Shown in pieces: positions 3,784 to 24,000 of a stretch of DNA of 24,000 nucleotides (the stretch's first letter is position 1; each line of letters opens with the position of its first letter). The position numbers and the translations under genes are program-made. Source of the DNA: Hahella sp. KA22 (lineage in GTDB: Bacteria > Pseudomonadota > Gammaproteobacteria > Pseudomonadales > Oleiphilaceae); NCBI RefSeq assembly GCF_004135205.1, contig NZ_CP035490.1:3925644-3949643 (forward strand), read 5' to 3'. A model generated the notes under the pieces. That model saw only the letters and a list, made by a program, of their open reading frames with translations, was not told the DNA's origin and made no database searches.

Positions 3784-5268
3784 CTAAAAAGACGTCTGCG
3801 GCCAGTCCGACACGGATTCCAGATAGAATTTCTGGTTGTCGCCGCCGCTGCAGCGCCAGATTTGCCATTGTTCGGAGGATTCCGCAGTTCCGCCGGGGAT
3901 ATCCATGCAATGGCTGCCGTTGTTGTCCAGGTTCTGGAACTCGCCGGCCTCGGTGATGCGCCATTTCTCGGAACTTCCGCCGTCGCAATCCCACAAGTGC
4001 ATTTTGTCGCCGTTGTCCGCGGAGCCGGTACTGAAGTCAGCGCAGTAGCGGTTATCGCCTTTGGGGCGTAACTGGCCTTCCGCGGTATACACGAACTGCT
4101 GATTATCCCCGCCGCCGCAGGCCCAGGACAGCAGGTCGCCGCCATTGCCGTACTGCGCCTTATCCACATCCAGGCAGTACTCCGGTCTCACCTTGGGTTT
4201 GATTTTGAAGTACCCCGGTAAGCCCCGGCGCTGGCCAACCAGGGGAATGGAGCTGGCGGTCCAGCCAGGCGTGGAGGAGGGCGCGTCCAGATTCCAGCTG
4301 ATCACGGAGACGCCGTGGGCCACCGCCAGCCAGGCGCTCTCGTAGGAAGTGTTGGCGAAATCTCCGGCGGCGCCCCACAGGTGCATGATCTGTTTATATT
4401 GAGCCGCGCGGTTGGCGGTGAGCTGATAATGGTCGCCGGCTTTCACGTTGCCGCAGAAAAAGTAGGTGGAATGTTCGGCGGACATGGAGTCGATGGCGCC
4501 AGAGAATTCGTCCGCGTCGGCGGTGTCGATGTCTGGACACAGAAAAGTGGACTGAGCGCCGAAACGATTCATCAGCGCCGTCTCCATACGTCCGTTAACG
4601 TCGCCGATAAAGCCCCCGGTCAACACCACGATCAGTTTGCCTTTCAGCTCCGAGACCTTCGGCCAGCCCACGTTTTTCAAGGTGTTGCGATAGTTGGACT
4701 GGAAATGTGGATTAAGGCGGTTGATCAGGTCCTGATACTGATAGAACCGGTTGCCGAGGCGGCTGTTCAGGTAATTGCCGATAAACTCATCCAGCTGCTC
4801 CACTTCCGAGGCATACCAGGCGTTCAACGGGTCCCAACTGGCTTTCATGTCGACGAACAGAACCAGCGGCATGGCGTTGGGGTGACCGTTCATCCAGCTC
4901 ACTACGTCGTCCAGGCAATGACCAAGCTGGTCGTCGCTGCCTGCGCTGCAGTTCTGATTTCCGGGGGAGGCGCTGTGGGAGACGTAGGGGCCTTTATCCC
5001 AGCTTTCCCAGTCGCCGCGGTCGATGACATCCAGCTCCAGGGTGCGATAACCGCGCTCAAGCCACTCGCTCAAACGACTTCCATGTTCAAAGCTGTTGTG
5101 AGGTTGCGCGTAGTACAACTCGTCAAAACGATGATTGTCATTGGCGGCTTTGGCCTGGAACGGCGGATAGAACGTTTCACCCGCGTTGGCGCCTGTGCTG
5201 AATCCCAATGAGAATGCGACGGAGCAAACGGCGGCCAGGACGGCGGGCGTTTTCCATTTGAATAACAT
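3784..5268 (-). CDS. Secreted PLC-like phosphodiesterase (PI-PLC X-like) fused to a C-terminal ricin-B (beta-trefoil) lectin domain
   Basis: Signal peptide MLFKWKTPAVLAAVCSVAFSLGFSTGANA from the ATG at 5268 (the track start at 5280 is a TTG). The N-terminal region PHNSFEH...GYRTLELDVID resembles the PI-PLC X-box/TIM-barrel phosphodiesterase. The C-terminal ~130 aa have three Cys-rich Q-x-W-like repeats (DNQQFVY, SSEKWRI, SSEQWQIW/DNQKFYL) typical of ricin B lectins. Confidence 0.8.
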   Translation of the reverse strand: MLFKWKTPAVLAAVCSVAFSLGFSTGANAGETFYPPFQAKAANDNHRFDELYYAQPHNSFEHGSRLSEWLERGYRTLELDVIDRGDWESWDKGPYVSHSASPGNQNCSAGSDDQLGHCLDDVVSWMNGHPNAMPLVLFVDMKASWDPLNAWYASEVEQLDEFIGNYLNSRLGNRFYQYQDLINRLNPHFQSNYRNTLKNVGWPKVSELKGKLIVVLTGGFIGDVNGRMETALMNRFGAQSTFLCPDIDTADADEFSGAIDSMSAEHSTYFFCGNVKAGDHYQLTANRAAQYKQIMHLWGAAGDFANTSYESAWLAVAHGVSVISWNLDAPSSTPGWTASSIPLVGQRRGLPGYFKIKPKVRPEYCLDVDKAQYGNGGDLLSWACGGGDNQQFVYTAEGQLRPKGDNRYCADFSTGSADNGDKMHLWDCDGGSSEKWRITEAGEFQNLDNNGSHCMDIPGGTAESSEQWQIWRCSGGDNQKFYLESVSDWPQTSF

Positions 5269-5612
5269 GCGATATCTCAACTCTGCTCAATTTCCGGCCA
5301 AACGCCACCCGTGCTTGCAGCAGAATCGCTGAAAACCTCAGGCGCGTTTAACGCGAAAGATGTGTGATATCCAGAGCCGAGAAACAGATGCGCCTCTCGG
5401 CCCCGGCGTTTGCAGTGGCCGCCACGATGTCATCTTGAAAAAAACAAATGACAGCGCAGTGAAGCGGAGTTGAAGGTTATTCGTGCATGGCCGTGCAACG
5501 GGATGGCTGGCGACGCCGCCGGGATCGCTATGCGGCGGCGCGATCTCTTTCCTGACGGCGACGCAGATCGGCCTTGAAACGGCGGGCGCTACAACAGCGG
5601 CCGGAATTAACA

Positions 5613-5750
5613 GCAGGTCGAAAAAGCGCAGCGCCTTTCGAGGTTTAGCGCTATGTCTACGTAGGATTAATGCATTCAAATACAGTTGGTTGTAAGATAT
5701 TTTTAATGCTGATTGTTGGATGGCGCTGCGTTTATCCAACCTACGTTTAT
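5613..5750. repeat. Composite REP/BIME-like element, copy 1 (left hairpin + AT-rich linker + right hairpin)
   Basis: Left arm GCAGGTCGAAAAAGCGCAGCGCCTTTCGAGG. Right arm GTTGGATGGCGCTGCGTTTATCCAACCTACGTTTAT (5715..5750). Same architecture as copies at 6596..6726, 6819..6950 and 22187..22307. Confidence 0.75.
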
Positions 5751-5780
5751 CACTGCATGCGCTGATTTGCGGGTGTGAAA

Positions 5781-6599
5781 ATGGATAGAACCGACGTTTG
5801 CTGGGACATGCTCTACATCGGCTGGGATGTGGGCGGCTGGAACTGCGATAGCAACAGTAAAAGCCGTGACGCCTTGGCGGTGTTGGATAATCAGCGCAAC
5901 CTGCTGGGCAAGCCCTGGCGAGGGAATTTGCGGACAGTTATCAATCAGGCCGCCACCACGGCGGAATGGATTCAGGCGCTGCTTGATTGCTGCGAGGTCA
6001 AATGGGCACTTCCTGCTGTGACCCTAGCAATCGATACGCCTTTGGGCTTCTCCCTGGCGTTGCAGCAACTGATCACTGGTGGAGCTCCAGTCGACCGGCT
6101 GGATGAGTCCGCCGCCAACCCTTATCTGTTCCGTTTCACTGAGCGTTTTTTATTCCAACATGGCTTGACGCCACTGTCTGTGGTCAAAGATATGATCGGC
6201 AGTCAGGCCACGAAAGGCATGCATGCGCTCGCAAAATTCGCGTCTCGGCGAAAATCCGTGGGTGTTTGGGAAGGGGATGGTCAGCTTCAGGCAATCGAAG
6301 CCTATCCGTCGTCCTGCAAACACTCCGACCTTATGGCGACGCTGCTGGAGCCATTTTGCTCTGAGCGGCGCAGCGACAAGCAGCCCATACGTGATCACTG
6401 GCGAGACGCCGCATTTATAGCGAACATCGACCATGACGACAAACGGGACGCACTGATCTGCGCCTTGATCGCCTGGCTGTTCGTGAACCAGCCCGAACAG
6501 CTCCAACAGCCTGAACCCGGTACCCCTTTGTCGGAAGGCTGGATCTTCGTCCCCAGAGATGGATTGGATGTAAAGATGAAAAGCTACAAAACCAAGTAG
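5781..6599 (+). CDS. Hypothetical protein, DUF429-like / RNase-H-fold predicted nuclease
   Basis: About 272-aa ORF. The N-terminus IGWDVGGWNCD...DALAVLD, the mid AIEAYPSS and the C-terminal DHDDKRDALICALIAWLF resemble the DUF429 pattern (GIDxxxxGW ... E.HP ... DALDAL.CA). Start is uncertain (GTG 5775, ATG 5781, ATG 5808). The stop TAG lies inside repeat copy 2. Confidence 0.6.
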   Translation: MDRTDVCWDMLYIGWDVGGWNCDSNSKSRDALAVLDNQRNLLGKPWRGNLRTVINQAATTAEWIQALLDCCEVKWALPAVTLAIDTPLGFSLALQQLITGGAPVDRLDESAANPYLFRFTERFLFQHGLTPLSVVKDMIGSQATKGMHALAKFASRRKSVGVWEGDGQLQAIEAYPSSCKHSDLMATLLEPFCSERRSDKQPIRDHWRDAAFIANIDHDDKRDALICALIAWLFVNQPEQLQQPEPGTPLSEGWIFVPRDGLDVKMKSYKTK

Positions 6600-6726
6600 G
6601 TCGGAAAAGTGCAGCGCCTTCCGACGCTATGTTTTCATGTGAGTAAATGCAATTAATTTAATGGATTGAGATTGTTTGTTAAATCCGTTTGTTGGATGGC
6701 GCTTTGCTTATCCAACCTACGTTTAT
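6596..6726. repeat. Composite REP/BIME-like element, copy 2
   Basis: Left arm GTAGGTCGGAAAAGTGCAGCGCCTTCCGACGCTATGTT, a ~57-nt AT-rich linker, and right arm GTTGGATGGCGCTTTGCTTATCCAACCTACGTTTAT (6691..6726). The reverse complement of the right arm (GTAGGTTGGATAAGCAAAGCGCCATCCAAC) is homologous to the left arm, so the arms act as terminal inverted repeats. Confidence 0.8.
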
Positions 6727-6741
6727 GAGTTGGAAGATGTC

Positions 6742-6772
6742 GGGGAAGTGCGGGCGGGCCGCCCGCGCTCCC
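6742..6772. repeat. 31-bp GC-rich palindromic repeat, left copy (flanks the DarT-DarT-DarG insert)
   Basis: GGGGAAGTGCGGGCGGGCCGCCCGCGCTCCC is identical to 9407..9437 in direct orientation. It contains the near-perfect palindrome GCGGGCGG-G-CCGCCCGC. Confidence 0.85.
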
Positions 6773-6818
6773 AGGACAGTCAGGGCTTGAGCAGGCTTTG
6801 TGTTTCGTCGCGAGTTGG

Positions 6819-6950
6819 GTAGGCCGGAAAAGCGAAGCGCCTTCCGACGCTGTGTTGCTCTCTTTTTAATGTCATTAATATCAATAAGTTGAATGGTTTT
6901 GTTAAGCCAAATAGTTGGATGTGTCAGATTGACGCGGCAATGGCGCTGGG
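6819..6950. repeat. Composite REP/BIME-like element, copy 3 (right arm degenerate or interrupted)
   Basis: Left arm GTAGGCCGGAAAAGCGAAGCGCCTTCCGACGCTGTGTT, then an AT-rich linker homologous to copy 2. The right arm begins AGTTGGATG but diverges (GTGTCAGATTGACGCGGCAATGGCGCTGG). Confidence 0.6.
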
Positions 6951-6985
6951 AGTGCATCAGGCCGCCTTAATGCTACCCAGCCTAA

Positions 6986-7014
6986 TTGCAGGATTACTGT
7001 GCGGTGATTTAAAT
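6986..7014 (+). promoter_or_regulatory. Candidate sigma70-type promoter for the DarT-DarT-DarG operon
   Basis: TTGCAG, a 17-nt spacer, then TTAAAT, about 75 nt upstream of the first DarT-like ATG. The match to consensus is weak. A GAGGA SD lies 8 nt before the ATG at 7088. Confidence 0.25.
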
Positions 7015-7087
7015 GAGCTAGATTTTATTATGTGCCGCCAGACTCAGTCGTAGCACAGGAACTGTTGAAGGAAATGAGGATAATGCA

Positions 7088-7687
7088 ATGCCGAGGGATA
7101 TTAAAAATAAAATGCTGGTTTACCATCTGACTGCGCTGGAGAACCTGCCATCTATTCTTGCTAATGGGCTAATGGCGCGTGCTGAGCTGCAGGCAAATTC
7201 CTTCGAGGATATTGCTGATTCTGAGATAATTCGATCCCGTGCCGAGCAAAGTTTAGATAGTTATGTACCCTTTCATTTTTTTTCTAGAACACCTTTTGAC
7301 TACGCAGCTCAGCGTGGGAATATAGACGTTCCTTTTATTTTGATTGCGGTACGAAGATCTCATGCAAAAGCAAGGTCTTGGAAAATTATTCCAAGACACC
7401 CCTTATCTCTTAACAATGGCGAAAAAGTCGTAATTATGGAGTATGACCAGGGAATTGAAGCAATTAATTGGGCGCTGATGGAAAGCACCGATCACTGCTA
7501 CGGTGCAGACTCTGATTATAAACAGGCATGTATGGCGGAGTGTTTATCGCCAACAGCCGTGAGTGCTGCCAATTTCCATTCAATATTTGTGAAAACAGAC
7601 GAAGATAAGTCTATCGTACTTGGCCTGCTAAAGGAGGCTGGCATTGACCTACATGTCAACCTAGTTCCGACTATGTTTGTTAATTAA
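7088..7687 (+). CDS. DarT-like DNA ADP-ribosyltransferase (DUF4433 family), divergent copy A
   Basis: 199-aa ORF in the AT-rich insert. It has the DUF4433 N-terminal motif LVYHLTALENLPSILANGL, SYVPFHFF, and an ARTT-like Glu in KQACMAECLS. It is colinear with the downstream paralog across its whole length. SD GAGGA is present. Confidence 0.8.
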   Translation: MPRDIKNKMLVYHLTALENLPSILANGLMARAELQANSFEDIADSEIIRSRAEQSLDSYVPFHFFSRTPFDYAAQRGNIDVPFILIAVRRSHAKARSWKIIPRHPLSLNNGEKVVIMEYDQGIEAINWALMESTDHCYGADSDYKQACMAECLSPTAVSAANFHSIFVKTDEDKSIVLGLLKEAGIDLHVNLVPTMFVN

Positions 7688-7691
7688 TACA

Positions 7692-8336
7692 ATGATCTAT
7701 ACCAGTTTGAACCCACAGAAAGCGCTCATCTGGCGCATTGTTCATCGTGAAAATGTTCCTTGGATTCTAGACCACGGTTTGCACTGTGGAAACAGTCCAG
7801 TTAGCTCGTCTAATTGGGTGAGTATTGGTAATCCTGAGTTAACTGACAAACGCGCGACGCATGCAGTTCCCGTGGGGCCAAAAGGATACTTGAATGACTA
7901 TGTGCCTTTCTATTTCACTCCGTTCTCCCCAATGATGAAAAATATTCACAGCGGATGGGGAGGAATTAAACAGCGGCCGAATGAGGAGATTGTAATTCTC
8001 GTTTCCGACTTGTACCGTGTCAGCGAAATGGGGCTACCCTTTGTTTTTACCAATGGGCATGCATATTACGCTTGGACCGACTTCTTCACTGACCTAGACG
8101 ACCTAGAAAATATTGATTGGACTATTATCCAGTCCAGAGATTTCAAGCGAGACCCTAATGACCCAGCCAAATTCGAGCGATATCAGGCTGAGGCACTGAT
8201 ACATCAATCTTGTCCAGTCGATGCCTTAAAGGGCATGGTTTGTTACACTGAAAACACAAAAAAACGATTGGATGGTTGGTTGCACGAGCGACAAATGGCC
8301 ATGCCAGTTCATGCGCGGCCAAGGTGGTATTTCTAA
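7692..8336 (+). CDS. darT: DarT-like DNA ADP-ribosyltransferase (DUF4433 family), canonical-looking copy B
   Basis: About 214 aa from the ATG at 7692 (an alternative TTG at 7677 overlaps copy A). Motifs are [45 protein letters not shown] and [10 protein letters not shown] (catalytic-Glu motif QAE.L), which closely resemble characterised DarT. The stop overlaps the darG start (TAATG). Confidence 0.85.
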
Positions 8337-9403
8337 TGATTTCGTATGCACAAGGTAATTTACTTGAGGCGGAAGTGGAAGCGCTGGTGAATACCGTAAA
8401 TACCGTTGGAGTGATGGGAAAGGGCATTGCTCTGATGTTTAAAGAGCGCTTTCCGCAAAATATGCAGGCTTATGTCAGGGCCTGTAGAACAGGAGATGTG
8501 GTCACAGGGAAGATGTTCATCACTAAAACAGACGAGCTGATGGGGCCGAAGTGGATTGTTAATTTCCCAACGAAGCAGCATTGGCGCGCAAAGTCCAAAA
8601 TGGAGTGGATTGATGAGGGGCTTGTGGATTTGCGTCGATTTATTACAGAACACCATGTAAAGTCAATTGCAATCCCCCCGTTAGGTGCCGGTAATGGTGG
8701 TTTAAGCTGGCAGGACGTGAAGCGCCGCATTGAAAAAGCCCTTACTGATATTGAGGGCGTCGATATTCGGGTTTATGAACCCACAGCAAAATATCAAAAC
8801 GTTTCAAAAAAGGCGGGTGTAAGCGAGCTTACCACTTCACGAGCAATGGTCGCTGAACTTGTGCGTCGCTATTGGATACTCGGTATGGAGTGCAGCTTAC
8901 TCGAAATTCAAAAGCTTGCTTGGTTTTTACAGCGAGTAATTGATGCGCAAGGTTTAAAAAATGACTTGGAGCTTCATTTTGAAGCCAATTACTACGGGCC
9001 TTACGCTAATAACTTAACTCATTTATTGAATGCTCTAGATGGTAGCTACCTTAAGTCTGATAAGCGCATTCCTGACAGTGACCCTCTGGACGTCATCGCT
9101 TTTAACGATACCAAAAGAGAATACGTTGAAACTTATTTGAATACTGAGGGGCAGGATTATTTGCCTGCATTAGAAAAAGCCAGCGAGATAATTAGTGGCT
9201 TTGAATCGCCCTTTGGGATGGAGTTGCTTGCCACTGTTGACTGGTTGCTAACAAGAGAAGGGTGCGAACCTACTTTGGAGTCCATTAAGGGCGGTATTGC
9301 TCATTGGCCATCAGGAAAGAAATGGGCTGAGCGCAAGCTTGCTTTATTTGATGACAGAAGCTTGCAATTCGCAATAGATCGAATGAAGACGGCTTCAATT
9401 TAA
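8336..9403 (+). CDS. darG: DarG-like antitoxin: N-terminal macrodomain (ADP-ribosyl-DNA glycohydrolase) plus C-terminal DarT-binding domain
   Basis: 355 aa from the ATG at 8336 ([40 protein letters not shown]). It has the macrodomain phosphate loops GVMGKGIA and [10 protein letters not shown] and the catalytic-Lys motif [17 protein letters not shown]. The ~190-aa C-terminal domain (..[23 protein letters not shown]..) has DarG-like length. The track's 8276 start is an unsupported N-terminal extension. Confidence 0.9.
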
Positions 9404-9406
9404 AGA

Positions 9407-9437
9407 GGGGAAGTGCGGGCGGGCCGCCCGCGCTCCC
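9407..9437. repeat. 31-bp GC-rich palindromic repeat, right copy
   Basis: Identical to 6742..6772. It starts 4 nt after the darG stop and ends 9 nt before the convergent TPR gene stop. Confidence 0.85.
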
Positions 9438-9445
9438 GGATCGGG

Positions 9446-11263
9446 TTAGTTCTGCAGTTGTTTTTCTGCGTCGGTTTTCCAGGGGGAGGCCAGGCCCAGT
9501 CTGAGGGAGGATTTGAACAGGCTTTGCGCTTCCGCCGTCTGGCCGCTTTTCTGTTTCACTTTGGCGTAATGGTAGTTGATGGTCGGGTTATTGGCGGCCA
9601 GTTGGTAGGCTTTGCCGATGTTGGTTTCCGCATCGTCAACTTTGCCCAGACGGAATTGTATCCAGCCCAGCGTGTCGAGAACGGTGGGGTTGATGGGGGC
9701 GAGTTTTGCGGCTTGCAGGGCCAGTTTCTCCGCTTCCTTGAGTTTGTCCGTCTCGCCCAGCAGGTACGCCAGATTATTCAACGCGCCCAGGTGGGAGTCG
9801 TTCAGATGCAGGACGCGGCGATAGGCGTCTATGGCCTGATCGGTTTTCTTGCCTTCCTCATACAGAGAGCCTAACAGGAACAATCCTTCGTGAGATTCCG
9901 GATTATTTTTGACCAGAGTTTCCATTTCCTGCTGGGCTTTATCCAGCTCGCCCAGTTGTTTCAGAGCGACGGCTTTGGCCATGCGCAGGGAGCCGGAGTC
10001 CGGCGCCCGTTGCAACCCTTTATCAAACAGGTCCGCGGCGGCGGCGTAGTCACGGGTGAAGGCGTGAAAGGAGCCTGCGTACAGATAACTCTGTGGGTTG
10101 TCCGGGTAAGTCTTTAACAGGTCGCTGTATACCGCTTTCGCCTTAACCGGGTCGTTCTGCAGCTGATACAGGCTGCCCAGACGCTGATAGTACGGGAAAG
10201 GCGTCTTGGACCGCTTGATCAGGTCTTTATAGACTTTCTCCGCCAGCTCATGTTTGCCGGATTGCGCGAAGTAATCGCCGGCCTGCACCGCCAGATTTTC
10301 CGGCAGCGCTTTGTCTTGCAGCGCTTTTTGGTAGTCGCTGACGGCTTTATCGTGATCGTCTTTCTTGGTGTAGGTCAGCGCGCGCTGGAAATAGCCCAGC
10401 CCCCAATCTGACTTTAATTTGAGCAATTGGTTGAAGCTGTTGAGTGAGTTATCCAGCTGACCCGCGTCGCGCTGGGCGATGCCCAGAGAAAGCAGGGGCG
10501 CAGGTTGTTTCGGCGACAATTTCAGCGCTTTCTGGAACAGGGGAATTGCCGCCTCAGGGCTTTGGTTGGCGACGTACGCGTTGGCGAGCAGCACCAGGGC
10601 GACGGCGTTGTCGCTGGTGGCGTCAATAATCGGGGAGAGCAGTTTGATGGCTTTGCCTGATTCGCCATTTTTGACGTACTGCTCCGCCAGATTAAGTTTG
10701 ACGCCCACATAACCCTCTGGCGTGTTGGCCAGACCTTTCTCCAGGTGCTCAATAGATTTGGCGACCTCGCCTTGTTCCTGATAGATCAAGCCCAGCCGTT
10801 GATGCGCGCGCGCATCGTTGTCGTTGTAGCCGACGGCGGTTTTGTAAGCGTTAAACGCCTTCTTGGGTTCTTTCAGGGCGGTGTGAACGTCGCCTTGTTT
10901 GGTCCAGGCGGAGCTTTGCGTTGGCGCCAATTGCGTGGCTTTTTGTAGCTGCTTGAGCCCTTCCTTGAGTTTTCCCTGCAACGCCAGCACCGTGCCTTTC
11001 AGCTCCAGCGCCAGTGAGTTATTCGGCTCTTTGGCGAGAATATCATCCAGCAGCTTCTGGCTTTGCATAAACTTTTGCTGCCGAATCAGGTCCAGCGCGG
11101 TGGCGAGATCCTGATTGGCGGGCTGCAGCTCGCCGCCGGCGGGAGGCGCGTCAAGAAAGAAAAGGCTGCTGTCGGACTGAGCGGAGCTGGGTTGCGTAAT
11201 GGCGGCGTGACTGCCGCCAACGGCGAAAAAAATCGCCAGCGCTAAAGAGAGGCGTTTGTTCAT
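9446..11263 (-). CDS. Secreted tetratricopeptide-repeat (TPR) protein
   Basis: Signal peptide MNKRLSLALAIFFAVGGSHA from the ATG at 11263; the track's 11302 start adds 13 implausible residues. About 14-16 consecutive 34-aa TPR-like units follow (e.g. ALELKGTVLALQGKLKEGLKQLQKATQLAP, AHQRLGLIYQEQGEVAKSIEHLEKGL). Confidence 0.85.
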   Translation of the reverse strand: MNKRLSLALAIFFAVGGSHAAITQPSSAQSDSSLFFLDAPPAGGELQPANQDLATALDLIRQQKFMQSQKLLDDILAKEPNNSLALELKGTVLALQGKLKEGLKQLQKATQLAPTQSSAWTKQGDVHTALKEPKKAFNAYKTAVGYNDNDARAHQRLGLIYQEQGEVAKSIEHLEKGLANTPEGYVGVKLNLAEQYVKNGESGKAIKLLSPIIDATSDNAVALVLLANAYVANQSPEAAIPLFQKALKLSPKQPAPLLSLGIAQRDAGQLDNSLNSFNQLLKLKSDWGLGYFQRALTYTKKDDHDKAVSDYQKALQDKALPENLAVQAGDYFAQSGKHELAEKVYKDLIKRSKTPFPYYQRLGSLYQLQNDPVKAKAVYSDLLKTYPDNPQSYLYAGSFHAFTRDYAAAADLFDKGLQRAPDSGSLRMAKAVALKQLGELDKAQQEMETLVKNNPESHEGLFLLGSLYEEGKKTDQAIDAYRRVLHLNDSHLGALNNLAYLLGETDKLKEAEKLALQAAKLAPINPTVLDTLGWIQFRLGKVDDAETNIGKAYQLAANNPTINYHYAKVKQKSGQTAEAQSLFKSSLRLGLASPWKTDAEKQLQN

Positions 11264-11332
11264 CGATAGGGACCTTATAATTCTCAGACAAATTAGCATC
11301 ATGCTTTTGTGAGAGTGTAATCCAATATGCGG

Positions 11333-11381: not shown

Positions 11382-12413
11382 TTAGCTTTTTCTGCGACGA
11401 GCCAGCAAGCCAACCAGACCCAGACCCATCAACGCCAGGCTGGCGGGTTCTGGAACAGTTGCGCCGACAACGATGTGGTCGCGCTCGGTAGCGACTCTGC
11501 CGCCGTCAACAGTGGCGTAGATGTCGAAGTCGTAGGTGCCGGGAGTAGTGCCGGTGAAGGTGACTTCGAAATCATAGGTCGCAGCGCTGTCGCGGGTGAA
11601 AGAGCCGTTATAAGACGCAGGAGACACGGAAACCATGCCGGGAGGCGCGCCAGAGATATCGAGCGCCACTTCAGTATAAGAAGAAATAGCGGTCGAAATG
11701 GCGTCATTGATAGTGTCTACCAATGTGGTGGTGTCGATGCCTGCGTGATAGGTGCCGCCAGTCGCATTGGTGATGCGAGTAGCTTGACCGGTGCCGTCTA
11801 AGCAGAAGCCGAAAGTGCAGTTAGCGACGTCAATCGCTTCAACCTGGATGCTGGCTGCCTGCAAAGCGGCGGTAGCGCTGGCTTCAGTTGAGCCCAAAGA
11901 GGGGTCATGGCCCGTTGCGTCGCCGAACCACAGCAGGATGCGCTCTGCGTCCGGACGCCAGGAAATGGTGGTGGCGACCTGTTCCAACGCGTAGATATTC
12001 GCTTCGGGGAAATCGCCGCCGCCACCGGCGGTCCAGGTGTTGATCGCCGCTTGGGCCGCTGAGGTGTCGCTGGTCATATCGGTCAGGGTGCGATAAGCGA
12101 AGAAATCGCTGGCGTCACGATAGCCGCCGACCCCGAAGTTAATGTCGCCAAAGCCCGCTGCTGTGCCCAGTATAGAGCTGGCGGCGGCTTTAACCGCTGC
12201 AATCTCTCCACTCATGCTACCGGTTTCATCCATTAGGAAGAATACGTCTACCTTGGATGTGCTCGCTTCAGCGTCAACGGTGACTGTCTTGGTGATGGTC
12301 ACGCTTTCGCCGACATCAAGCGTCGCGGAGTAAGTAGTGGGAGAGATAGAGTCCGCCATCGCTGTAAACGGCAGAAACGCGGTTAGTGCGAGTGAGCACG
12401 CTAATCTTTTCAT
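11382..12413 (-). CDS. VWA-domain protein with C-terminal PEP-CTERM sorting signal
   Basis: ATG at 12413 is preceded by a perfect SD AGGAGG; the track's 12698 start is an upstream extension through AT-rich non-coding-looking sequence. Signal peptide MKRLACSLALTAFLPFTAMA. VWA MIDAS motif VDVFFLMDETGSMSG. The C-terminus VPEPASLALMGLGLVGLLARRRKS is the PEP motif plus TM helix plus basic tail. Confidence 0.88.
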   Translation of the reverse strand: MKRLACSLALTAFLPFTAMADSISPTTYSATLDVGESVTITKTVTVDAEASTSKVDVFFLMDETGSMSGEIAAVKAAASSILGTAAGFGDINFGVGGYRDASDFFAYRTLTDMTSDTSAAQAAINTWTAGGGGDFPEANIYALEQVATTISWRPDAERILLWFGDATGHDPSLGSTEASATAALQAASIQVEAIDVANCTFGFCLDGTGQATRITNATGGTYHAGIDTTTLVDTINDAISTAISSYTEVALDISGAPPGMVSVSPASYNGSFTRDSAATYDFEVTFTGTTPGTYDFDIYATVDGGRVATERDHIVVGATVPEPASLALMGLGLVGLLARRRKS

Positions 12414-12842
12414 TGTTACCTCCTGGTGTGGGTTGTAGTTAGATTTAGTACTGCAATGAAAAATTTCTTGAGATTGCTCAGGGAACCTATAAGGCACAAA
12501 ACAGGCCAATCTCTTTAGAACCCCGCTTATTGGGGTGTTTCTTAACTCTTTCAGGAAGTGGCCATCCGGGAACTGTAAATTCGTTATATAAGCATTTCCA
12601 CTAAAGGCCAAAAGGCTTATTCCATTAAGGATAATTTCGCAAAAATCGAGGATTATGTATACAAAGCTAAGCGTCTGTTTTGTATCGTTTTTGTGCAATC
12701 TAACGATAGGCCTAAACGCCCCTGGCGCGGGGGTTAGATTGAATTTTAAACAAGCTGAAAATTAAGAAGGTGTAAATTCTTTGAACGCTGTCGAGGGACT
12801 CACAGGAAACGCAGGTGTGGCGTTAACTGTTTGTGTGGAGAA

Positions 12843-21983: not shown

Positions 21984-22104
21984 CACGGTCATCACCTAAA
22001 GTCATCATGCATAGCTTCTAAAAGCGTAGCAGATTGGCCAGTTTGGCGACGCCAAGCCTGAGGTTGTTACTTTTTTTGACAGATTGCGTTTAACTATTAA
22101 TCAG

Positions 22105-22206
22105 GCAGTCAAATAGCTTCCTTCTATTTGACTGCAACGACAGGGCCTGCACAGGTCAGGCCCTGTCTCCCGCGGCTAGCCGCCGCGCAGGCGCATCCAT
22201 GCGCCT
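22105..22206. other. Cluster of four consecutive perfect stem-loops/palindromes
   Basis: GCAGTCAAATAG-cttcctt-CTATTTGACTGC (22105..22135). ACAGGGCCTG-cacaggt-CAGGCCCTGT (22140..22166). GCGGCTAGCCGC (22172..22183). AGGCGCAT-cc-ATGCGCCT (22189..22206). None is followed by a T-run on either strand. Confidence 0.6.
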
Positions 22207-22307
22207 AGTTATTAACATGCCAATATCATTGCCATATTAATAATAATTAGAGTGCAAAGTCTCTGAGCGATGCGTTGGATGGCGCTTTGCTTATCCAACC
22301 TACATTT
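22187..22307. repeat. Composite REP/BIME-like element, copy 4 (variant left hairpin)
   Basis: The right arm GTTGGATGGCGCTTTGCTTATCCAACCTACATTT (22274..22307) is near-identical to 6691..6724. It is preceded by a ~65-nt AT-rich linker and a palindromic left arm (AGGCGCATCCATGCGCCT). Confidence 0.65.
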
Positions 22308-22403
22308 CCAACCTGCATTTATCTGGCCCGCATTTATCGGTTATGCATTCTTTTGGTTCAGATTATTCCAATGCTCAATTATCTTTCTGTTCACTGCATC
22401 GGG

Positions 22404-24000
22404 TTACTTGCTAAGACGCAGATAAACCAGCAGGTTAAGCAGAGCGGGGGGATTGATTGCTGCGGCGTCGTCACGCCAGTCAATGGCGGCGGACAGGATT
22501 CGATTCAGCCTGTGCAGTCCTATGGCTTCGCATTGTTGCGTTAATTCTCGCCACCGGGATTGAGCATTGGGCGCCGCCTGTCTAATCCCTGTGATTAGCA
22601 GGTCGCAGAGTAATTGGTCCAGCTCCTCCAATAGCCGAGACAAGGTTGACTGCTCCAGGGCAAGGCGATTTTCCGCAGGTAGCGTATGGGCGGCAGGTAT
22701 ACCGGGCAAGCTGGCGTCGACATAGGGTTGCAGCATCATGGCTTGTTGGCTCACGGAGTACACGACACTGATGGGCTCGATCATCAACCCGTGCGTGTGT
22801 TCCGTGACCGAACCGGCGACGTAGTTGATGTGCGAGCCATGCATTCGCAGTAGTTGCAACAGTACTTCAGCGCCTCCCGCCCCGCGCGTTGAGTAGGGAA
22901 ACGCAAGCGCGATACTGGCGCCTTTGGCGTCCACAAGGTCGGCTTTGACGCACTGGGAGGCGGCGTCGAAACGGGGATTGGCGACGCCACTCACTTTGAT
23001 CGCATAAAAATTTTCATTGGCCTTAAGAGACCGAAACGGCCCCGCCAGGCGAGTGGCCAGACGCCTGCGGAGTTCATCAAAGTCCTCCATTAGCAGGTTC
23101 TGACGCAGTGTCGACCATTGATAGGATTGTGGATTAACCGCGGTCTGGCGACCAAACGTCATGCGATTATCCAAGGATAGTTTGGCGCCGGAGGTTAACA
23201 CCTGCCCCTTGCCGTAGTCCTGGATAGAGTGCTGCAGCACATACATGCGTTGGGTGATCTGATAATAGGAGTGGGGAGCGTCTTCCGCCTTCGAGGTTTT
23301 TTGACGTTTCTCCAGAATCACCAGTCCGCCAGTGTCGACGCTCTGTAGAAACACCTCTGCGAAGACGCCGCCATGCTCCTCCCGCATGCGGCAACCCAGG
23401 CCTATATAGCGCGACTTGCCGGTTCGCTCCCTGACCCTTTTTGGTCCTCCGCCTCTAATTACGACTTCCGGCGCAGGCAGCGTCGGCGAGGCGAGGGCGC
23501 GTTGCCGACAGAGGAACTCGCCCATGTGGCGGATCGCCTGAGAAGGGGAAAAGGAGCCGTCTCGGCGGTGATAGCGGTCGATCTGCTCCACCAGACGCTC
23601 ACAGTGGCTGGCCGGCCACAGCCAGTCATGAGCCTGCATACGCCGGGCGGCGCGGCGGAGCTTATCCCGCATTCCTGGCTCCAGTTGAGAGAGTCCGCCC
23701 TGCAGCAGGCGAACAAACAGGCCGCCGACGGACCGCAACGCTTCCGGTTCGGCAGGGGGCGGTGGGCAGGTGCTGACATAACCGGCCGTCTGGCCCTGCG
23801 GGAGCCGCCTGAACGCCAGTATGGCGATAATCGCCGCCACCGCCGTCAGTTCCTCATCGCCATCGGACTGCACATAGCGCGGATCGCCCGGAGCTAAAAA
23901 GCGGACCGCCACACCGATCGTCTCAATAATCGCCAGCGGCTTCTCGCTGAGGGCCAACTCCGCCAGTACGCCTTCCTGAAACCACTTCTTCGCTTTACGG
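22404..24000 (-). CDS. Large uncharacterised protein, 5'-truncated by the window edge
   Basis: The reading frame stays open from 22404 to position 23999 (upstream codons read ..RKAKKWFQEGVLAELALSEKP..), so the track's TTG at 23957 is probably internal. At least 532 aa are visible. GC3-rich codon usage. No motif I can confidently assign. Confidence 0.7.
   Translation of the reverse strand, partial: RKAKKWFQEGVLAELALSEKPLAIIETIGVAVRFLAPGDPRYVQSDGDEELTAVAAIIAILAFRRLPQGQTAGYVSTCPPPPAEPEALRSVGGLFVRLLQGGLSQLEPGMRDKLRRAARRMQAHDWLWPASHCERLVEQIDRYHRRDGSFSPSQAIRHMGEFLCRQRALASPTLPAPEVVIRGGGPKRVRERTGKSRYIGLGCRMREEHGGVFAEVFLQSVDTGGLVILEKRQKTSKAEDAPHSYYQITQRMYVLQHSIQDYGKGQVLTSGAKLSLDNRMTFGRQTAVNPQSYQWSTLRQNLLMEDFDELRRRLATRLAGPFRSLKANENFYAIKVSGVANPRFDAASQCVKADLVDAKGASIALAFPYSTRGAGGAEVLLQLLRMHGSHINYVAGSVTEHTHGLMIEPISVVYSVSQQAMMLQPYVDASLPGIPAAHTLPAENRLALEQSTLSRLLEELDQLLCDLLITGIRQAAPNAQSRWRELTQQCEAIGLHRLNRILSAAIDWRDDAAAINPPALLNLLVYLRLSK

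Follow-up and report, generated by a model that had tools for sequence, protein, structure and literature searches.

In Escherichia coli, the copy number of bacterial interspersed mosaic elements (BIMEs) is polymorphic, and insertion sequences (ISs) are inserted into the hairpins of repetitive extragenic palindromic (REP) sequences. BIMEs and REPINs (REP doublets forming hairpins) are mosaic arrays of inverted REP sequences (Bertels and Rainey, 2011; PMC3116915). DarTG is known for a toxin-antitoxin and anti-phage function (PMC11543638). The two meet in a 24,000-nt stretch of the genome of Hahella sp. KA22 (NCBI RefSeq assembly GCF_004135205.1, contig NZ_CP035490.1, positions 3,925,644 to 3,949,643 of the forward strand), which is called the window below. 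Here, an AT-rich cassette with three DarTG-like genes (darT-A, darT-B, and darG) lies between two copies of a 31-bp direct repeat, next to the stop codon of a convergent TPR-repeat gene. Probably, an array of REPs and hairpins already existed at this place, and the foreign DNA was inserted into its last unit; the two 31-mers would be neighbouring repeats of that array.

The array resembles BIMEs and REPINs in several respects. Its REPs are about 30 nt long, end with ...CCTAC, and form inverted doublets which fold into one long hairpin. Conserved linkers alternate with the REPs, and the number of units differs between close species. As at the REP hairpins of E. coli, the join to the foreign DNA falls within a REP hairpin. 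Unlike typical BIMEs and REPINs, the REP family is very low in copy number: about 28 copies are found genome-wide, mostly as doublets and most of them within 3.56–4.44 Mb (~0.9 Mb), and this 1.3-kb stretch contains five. None is near any of the four Y1-transposase genes of the genome, which are similar to REP-associated tyrosine transposases (RAYTs) or IS200; these genes are located at 4.89 and 5.93 Mb, and no REP of this family is within about 0.4 Mb of them. The hairpin-bearing linker is, unlike that of BIMEs, restricted to this locus, and the inserted DNA is a gene cassette instead of an IS. The composite elements flanking the cassette are inverted doublets of imperfect palindromes, form a long hairpin, and have multiple intergenic copies, as expected for REPs, REPINs, and BIMEs. 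The 31-mer, with its two copies, is not of this kind.

The 31-bp repeat and the REP/hairpin array

The sequence of the repeat is GGGGAAGTGCGGGCGGGCCGCCCGCGCTCCC. An exact search finds it twice on the same strand (Table 1), as the preliminary description of the locus had claimed, with 0 matches expected by chance. These two are the only copies in the whole genome (6,960,771 bp, up to two mismatches), which is too few for an abundant REP. Near 4.40 Mb, only the ~24-nt hairpin core of the 31-mer is present at an unrelated intergenic site, on the opposite strand. The 31-mer can be folded on either strand into a GC-rich stem of 13 bp with a 3-nt loop. The right copy is contained in the gap of 42 nt between the stop codons of darG (9401–9403) and the TPR gene (9446–9448), which had been described correctly. 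Another assembly, CP034836.1, contains the same 6.6 kb of the locus at 100% identity; the arrangement is therefore not an assembly artefact.

The locus was compared with three complete genomes of the same genus (G001, G003, and G004), which share the TPR gene at 89–91% identity. In G001 and G003, the order is the DUF429-like gene, one or more REP doublets, 21 nt, a single hairpin, and the TPR stop codon. These correspond to the empty site that had been predicted (the DUF429 gene, a single element, and the TPR gene), with a REP doublet in front of the hairpin. The empty sites retain the hairpin, and its distance to the TPR stop is unchanged. G004 has neither the DUF429-like gene nor the cassette at this locus. 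Its array is a tandem of three units, each about 224 nt long, in which REP1 and inverted REP2, separated by an AT-rich spacer, are followed by 21 nt, the hairpin, and a 46-nt linker. The linker follows the first two hairpins, and the third hairpin abuts the TPR gene.

The window contains the same components. REP1 (GTAGGTCGGAAAAG...) and the inverted REP2 (...CTTATCCAACCTAC) constitute a composite element, which in unit 1 is predicted to fold into one long hairpin (-46 kcal/mol, z = -5.0). The spacer of unit 1 is 96% identical to that of the last unit of G004, and 81% and 79% identical to those of the last units of G001 and G003, respectively. Unit 1 is followed by the left hairpin, the linker, and a truncated unit (unit 2'), whose REP1 is 89% identical to that of unit 1. 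The linker shows a weak similarity to the 3' end of the TPR gene (window 9496–9535), and 2 of 1000 shuffled sequences score equally. This is only suggestive; the linker may be what is left of a decayed copy of the TPR 3' end, which would fit an old segmental tandem duplication including the end of the gene.

The 149 nt past the left 31-mer (6773–6921) are native array sequence. This, together with the tandem hairpins of G004 without any cassette, indicates that the 31-bp repeat is a part of the BIME-like array, not an insertion scar. The hairpin and the linker behave like an inter-REP motif of BIMEs with a variable unit number: G001 and G003 have a single hairpin, the window has two, and G004 has three.

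The 31-mers had originally been taken as the ends of the insert, and duplication of the hairpin on insertion had been suggested. A mobile element might have been integrated at the hairpin by a recombinase supplied in trans, and the 31-bp site might have been duplicated as a target site or reconstituted as attachment sites (attL and attR). The perfect direct repeat is consistent with such an event, and so is the single copy at the empty sites of G001 and G003. Nevertheless, the sequence 6773–6921, inside the left repeat, is native and not the DNA of an element, so that the foreign part makes up only about 2.48 kb of the 2,634 bp enclosed by the repeats. The repeat is not single wherever the cassette is absent; the three tandem copies in G004 exist without the cassette. 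Besides, the same type of cassette is seen elsewhere without such ends, searches of the window found no integrase or transposase, and the 31-mer does not contain the core sites of integron attC (no GTT). This reading is strongly disfavoured, with very little probability left to it. A perfect direct repeat around an island of foreign composition, combined with single-copy empty sites, can thus mimic an integration scar, and caution is advised. It was the third relative, G004, that exposed the repeat as a part of a pre-existing REP/hairpin array with variable copy number.

Two known types of elements were considered and rejected. An IS200/IS605-like element or a palindrome-associated transposable element (PATE), which has subterminal hairpins in the same orientation, conflicts with the hairpin kept at the empty sites, the native sequence 6773–6921, and the array of G004. 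An integron gene cassette, expected to have attC with GTTRRRY boxes and to depend on IntI, is rejected by the same lack of a GTT core and by the absence of an integrase from the window, while a genome-wide search for IntI was not made.

Junctions and acquisition of the cassette

To map the junctions, window 6596–6940 and 9391–9500 were aligned to the array of G004. Window 6596–6818, which covers unit 1, the hairpin, and the linker, is homologous to the array over its full length. The homology ends after GTTGGATG (6921) and restarts exactly at the right hairpin (9407). About 43 nt of a unit, corresponding to the remainder of REP2 and the 21 nt, are absent. The boundaries between foreign and native DNA are ambiguous within 6922–6926 at the left, inside the REP hairpin, and within 9403–9406 at the right, directly before the right hairpin.

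The presence of the array without the cassette in G004, and the break of homology at 6921 with its resumption at 9407, favour the view that an array was there first and that the foreign DNA entered its last unit. This array, 3' of the TPR gene, would be BIME-like, with inverted REP doublets and a segment bearing the 31-nt hairpin in alternation, at a copy number that depends on the species. In the lineage of the window, the array would have had at least two units before the foreign DNA arrived. An AT-rich segment of about 2.48 kb, with a leader, darT-A, darT-B, and darG, would then have been joined to it. The left join would break the REP2 hairpin of the last unit at 6921–6926, and the right join would abut the TPR-proximal hairpin at 9406/9407. 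The 31-mers would simply happen to bracket the cassette and 149 nt of native DNA, with no target duplication and no att site. The integration may have been independent of a recombinase, likely by illegitimate or short-homology recombination at the REP/hairpin structures after uptake of the foreign DNA. Homologous exchange between Hahella strains is a possible later step. It can also be speculated that the 31-nt repeat permits precise loss of the cassette by repeat-mediated deletion.

Several observations weigh against this insertion. The spacer of unit 2' is only 62–71% identical to that of any other unit, and no cassette-free orthologue of exactly unit 2' was found. The left junction may also have arisen in two steps, in which 38 nt between two GTTGGA motifs were deleted first and the insertion then took place exactly 5' of the hairpin; this differs by only 4 nt from a break inside REP2. 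If only G001 and G003 are compared, the window seems to differ by a single block placed at the hairpin. The 31-mers are 100% identical, although the rest of the two units has diverged, which could be a sign of recent recombination or of gene conversion at the hairpin.

The last of these points are also those which fit the import of a block. The sequence from the linker through the truncated REP doublet to the cassette (6773–9406), together with one hairpin, might have been introduced as one piece from another Hahella strain, and recombination at a resident single hairpin, either homologous or site-specific, would have created the direct repeat here. Unit 1 of the window is orthologous to the TPR-proximal unit of the three relatives, with the spacer identities given above. 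Relative to G001 and G003, the difference is exactly one block and a second hairpin. The TPR-proximal copy of the identical 31-mers has the ...GCTCCC variant, which is otherwise seen in the internal copies of G004. The sequence 6696–6795 is 100% identical to G004, compared with about 90% in its flanks, which suggests recent exchange at the locus. The import still requires a prior insertion into the array of the donor, with the junctions at 6922–6926 and 9403–9406; the repeat would therefore not be the primary insertion scar in this case either. Moreover, 31 bp is short for RecA-dependent recombination, neither the recombinase nor the donor was found, and G004 shows that such arrays exist without the cassette. 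Block import, the main rival, is rather unlikely, and direct insertion into the array is preferred.

Around the left hairpin, the identity to G004 is 50/50 over 6746–6795 and 46/50 over 6796–6845. Over the tract 6696–6795, which includes REP2, the 21 nt, the hairpin, and the linker, the window and G004 (locus L003) are identical at 100/100 positions, and the flanking genes are 82–95% identical per 100 nt. The array has therefore either undergone exchange or gene conversion recently, or is under strong constraint.

The AT-richness of the insert had been noticed in the preliminary description, where about 40% GC was counted by hand. The discontinuity was verified by measurement, although the counted value was slightly too low: GC is 0.42–0.47 over about 6.9–9.4 kb and 0.55–0.60 in the flanks. 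The segment 6922–9406 has a GC of 0.447, versus 0.539 for the genome (z = -2.2 against all 2.5-kb windows of the genome, of which 3.2% are as low). GC at third codon positions (GC3) is 0.385, 0.479, and 0.444 in darT-A, darT-B, and darG, respectively, versus 0.60–0.75 in the neighbouring genes. No part of 6922–9406 was matched in seven other genomes of the same genus. The lack of matches in these genomes, the low GC and GC3, and the presence of the three genes in unrelated genomes argue for horizontal acquisition of a self-contained cassette, as had been proposed.

If the cassette had instead been present in the common ancestor, with an intrinsically AT-rich sequence, a deletion with its ends in the two 31-nt repeats would have removed it from the relatives. 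Such a recombination event would indeed restore the exact single-hairpin state of G001 and G003. This scenario has to face the absence of the cassette in all seven (7/7) other species of the genus searched, and a GC3 which is 15–30 points under that of the neighbouring genes. The distribution of the cassette is sporadic (one other genome among 400 sampled in the class), and the nearest homologs are 57–78% identical and belong to distant genera. Ancestral presence is considered most improbable.

The window was also searched for other signals. No tRNA gene is present in it, and here too, as for integrase and transposase, the earlier statement holds. Rfam gives 0 matches across 5200–9700. Promoter and terminator scans of the locus performed no better than on shuffled sequences. 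The features of the locus are listed in Table 1.

Table 1. Positions of the array components, the cassette, and the neighbouring genes in the window.
Feature	Position	Strand	Basis
REP doublet (REPIN-like) upstream of DUF429-like gene	5613..5746	+	REP1 at 5616, REP2 at 5716; same arrangement in G001 and G003
DUF429-like / PADLOC PDC-S44 candidate defence gene, REP doublets on both sides	5781..6599	+	PADLOC PDC-S44 5.9e-113
Array unit 1: REP1 (6596–6628), AT-rich spacer, inverted REP2 (6692–6720)	6596..6720	+	Orthologue of the TPR-proximal REP doublet of relatives
Left 31-nt GC-rich hairpin	6742..6772	+	Exact repeat, genome-wide count, folding
Array linker, native, present twice in G004	6773..6818	+	Identical to G004 linkers
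Array unit 2', truncated: REP1, spacer, only 5' arm (GTTGGATG) of REP2	6819..6921	+	Homology to full units stops at 6921
Foreign AT-rich cassette: 160-nt leader and three genes	6922..9406	+	GC, absence from relatives, breakpoints against G004 array
darT-A, divergent DarT ADP-ribosyltransferase, 199 aa	7088..7687	+	Pfam DarT 2e-26; PADLOC DarT 2e-38
darT-B, canonical thymidine-type DarT (DarT2-like), 214 aa	7692..8336	+	NCBIfam toxin_DarT 261 bits, cut-off 150
darG antitoxin, 355 aa: N-terminal macrodomain and C-terminal DarT-binding domain	8336..9403	+	NCBIfam antitoxin_DarG 440 bits, cut-off 250
Right 31-nt hairpin, between convergent darG and TPR stops	9407..9437	+	Corresponds in position to the one hairpin preceding the TPR gene of G001 and G003
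Conserved TPR-repeat gene, right anchor of the locus	9446..11302	-	Pfam TPR families; 89–91% identical in G001, G003, and G004

The three genes and their recurrence

The operon had been described as DarTG-like with three genes, and profile searches support this for darT-A, darT-B, and darG, which are intact. The pair of darT-B and darG is similar to DarTG2-type systems, such as DarT-DarG of Thermus, DarTG of Mycobacterium tuberculosis, and DarTG2 of E. coli. Both proteins score above the equivalog cut-offs of NCBIfam, and the genes overlap in an operon-like manner, the start of darG sharing 1 nt with the stop of darT-B. DarT-B matches Thermus DarT (PDB 7omv, 2e-24), and the Glu of YQAEAL is aligned to the catalytic position mutated there. 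Like the antitoxins of these systems, DarG is composed of a macrodomain and a C-terminal DarT-binding domain; in the residue numbers of the long open reading frame, the macrodomain 5m31 is matched at 21–170 (4e-56) and the C-terminal domain of M. tuberculosis DarG (7yk3_B) at 200–370 (7e-16). A DarT-family enzyme with catalytic residues and an adjacent DarG with a macrodomain and a toxin-binding domain, the two hallmarks of DarTG, are thus both present.

The difference from DarTG2-type systems is the extra, divergent darT-A ahead of the canonical pair. DarT-A reaches 68 bits on NCBIfam toxin_DarT, under the cut-off of 150. Its family includes at least 190 proteins, and Y12, H13, R51, and E151 are invariant among 45 homologs. 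The AlphaFold2 (AF2) model of DarT-A (pLDDT 91.8) was compared with known structures, with TM values of 0.78–0.80 for Thermus DarT, 0.75 for Thermosipho DarTG, 0.73–0.76 for M. tuberculosis DarT, and 0.70 for E. coli DarT1. Judging from the model, DarT-A has a DarT fold.

By analogy with characterized systems, the module is most likely a toxin-antitoxin or abortive-infection defence. Both DarTs would ADP-ribosylate single-stranded DNA (ssDNA). The macrodomain of DarG would reverse the modification, and its C-terminal domain would sequester the toxin.

The triad of DarT-A, DarT-B, and DarG is seen in at least seven other genomes: Halopseudomonas pelagia, Yersinia ruckeri, a Pseudomonas, Ideonella alba, Methylomarinum, Vibrio atlanticus, and the genome G359. 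The protein identities are 41–57% for DarT-A, 57–76% for DarT-B, and 38–78% for DarG. By these values, DarT-A diverges faster than DarT-B and DarG. The homologous triads are often within type I restriction-modification or defence islands. The cassettes of the Halopseudomonas, Yersinia, and Pseudomonas loci have no conserved non-coding ends in common. In H. pelagia (locus L012), the identities are 53%, 73%, and 71% for DarT-A, DarT-B, and DarG, respectively, and the GC of the cassette is 0.463, with flanks of 0.55. No empty site for this triad was found in 20 relatives of H. pelagia. Klebsiella aerogenes (locus L027) has only a darT-A-type gene and a macrodomain gene.

The DarT-A family is distributed sporadically; it is to this family that the one other genome among the 400 sampled refers. 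A close donor was sought, and none was found above 57–78% protein identity, and the nearest homolog of DarT-A is 57% identical. Plasmids yielded only darT-B and darG at up to 68% identity, and phages yielded nothing relevant. A scan of genome contigs returned two loci only, at 53% identity.

No description of the three-gene layout DarT-DarT-DarG was found in the literature searched, and none of the papers covered mentions the accession CP034836. The layout is apparently recurrent and undescribed, and the cassette of the window is one more example of it. The case is otherwise fairly ordinary, and the current understanding of DarTG and of REP elements is unchanged by it.

Two observations were made on related loci. 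In a genome of the same family but another genus (G018, locus L005, 1329–2573), an intact darG is located after a 31-aa remnant of darT-B, and represents an orphan antitoxin with a decayed toxin gene. The contig PAQK01000084.1 (locus L011), which is labelled as a metagenome-assembled genome (MAG) of Gemmatimonadetes, is 97.7% identical over 12.5 kb to the H. pelagia locus. Based on this identity, it is probably a mis-binned contig of Halopseudomonas.

A variable hot spot between conserved anchors

The gene at the left of the array (5781–6599) had been labelled DUF429. Its score on Pfam DUF429 is 13 bits, under the cut-off of 23, so the label does not hold by Pfam; it does hold by the names given at NCBI, where the orthologues of Hahella aquimaris (86% identity) and Hahella sp. 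CR1 (82%) are called DUF429. The gene has different left neighbours in G001 and G003. Flanked by REPs, accompanied by variable left neighbours, and absent in G004, this gene indicates that the stretch from the PLC/ricin gene to the TPR gene is a variable hot spot of small size, with REP elements as its framework. In this way, two defence-type genes between REP doublets are documented at one chromosomal hot spot of Hahella.

The hot spot is comparable to integrase-less defence insertions in chromosomal hot spots, where close relatives differ in whether a small module lies between the conserved anchors. As in those insertions, the cassette has an odd composition, no recombinase is encoded, and a second candidate defence gene (PDC-S44) adjoins it. 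Unlike other integrase-less hot spots, the locus is constructed of REP doublets and a hairpin array, and both cassettes are placed between units of the array.

It could be speculated, tentatively, that the array serves in Hahella as a dedicated landing pad, on which small defence cassettes without a recombinase settle, and, separately, that the triad is an uncharacterised form of DarTG, in which a single antitoxin controls two toxins of different DNA specificity; both ideas are doubtful. If the array is a landing pad, REP hairpins would capture the cassettes through a structure-directed mechanism acting on ssDNA, which might be RAYT-like or linked to replication. By means of the 31-nt hairpin repeat, the cell would then be able to shed a cassette precisely.

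Further AT-rich dips are seen elsewhere in the window. At 12400–12800, the 5' end of the VWA/PEP-CTERM gene and the sequence upstream of it have a GC of 0.40. At 22000–22600, the GC is 0.46 near a solitary REP at 22275.

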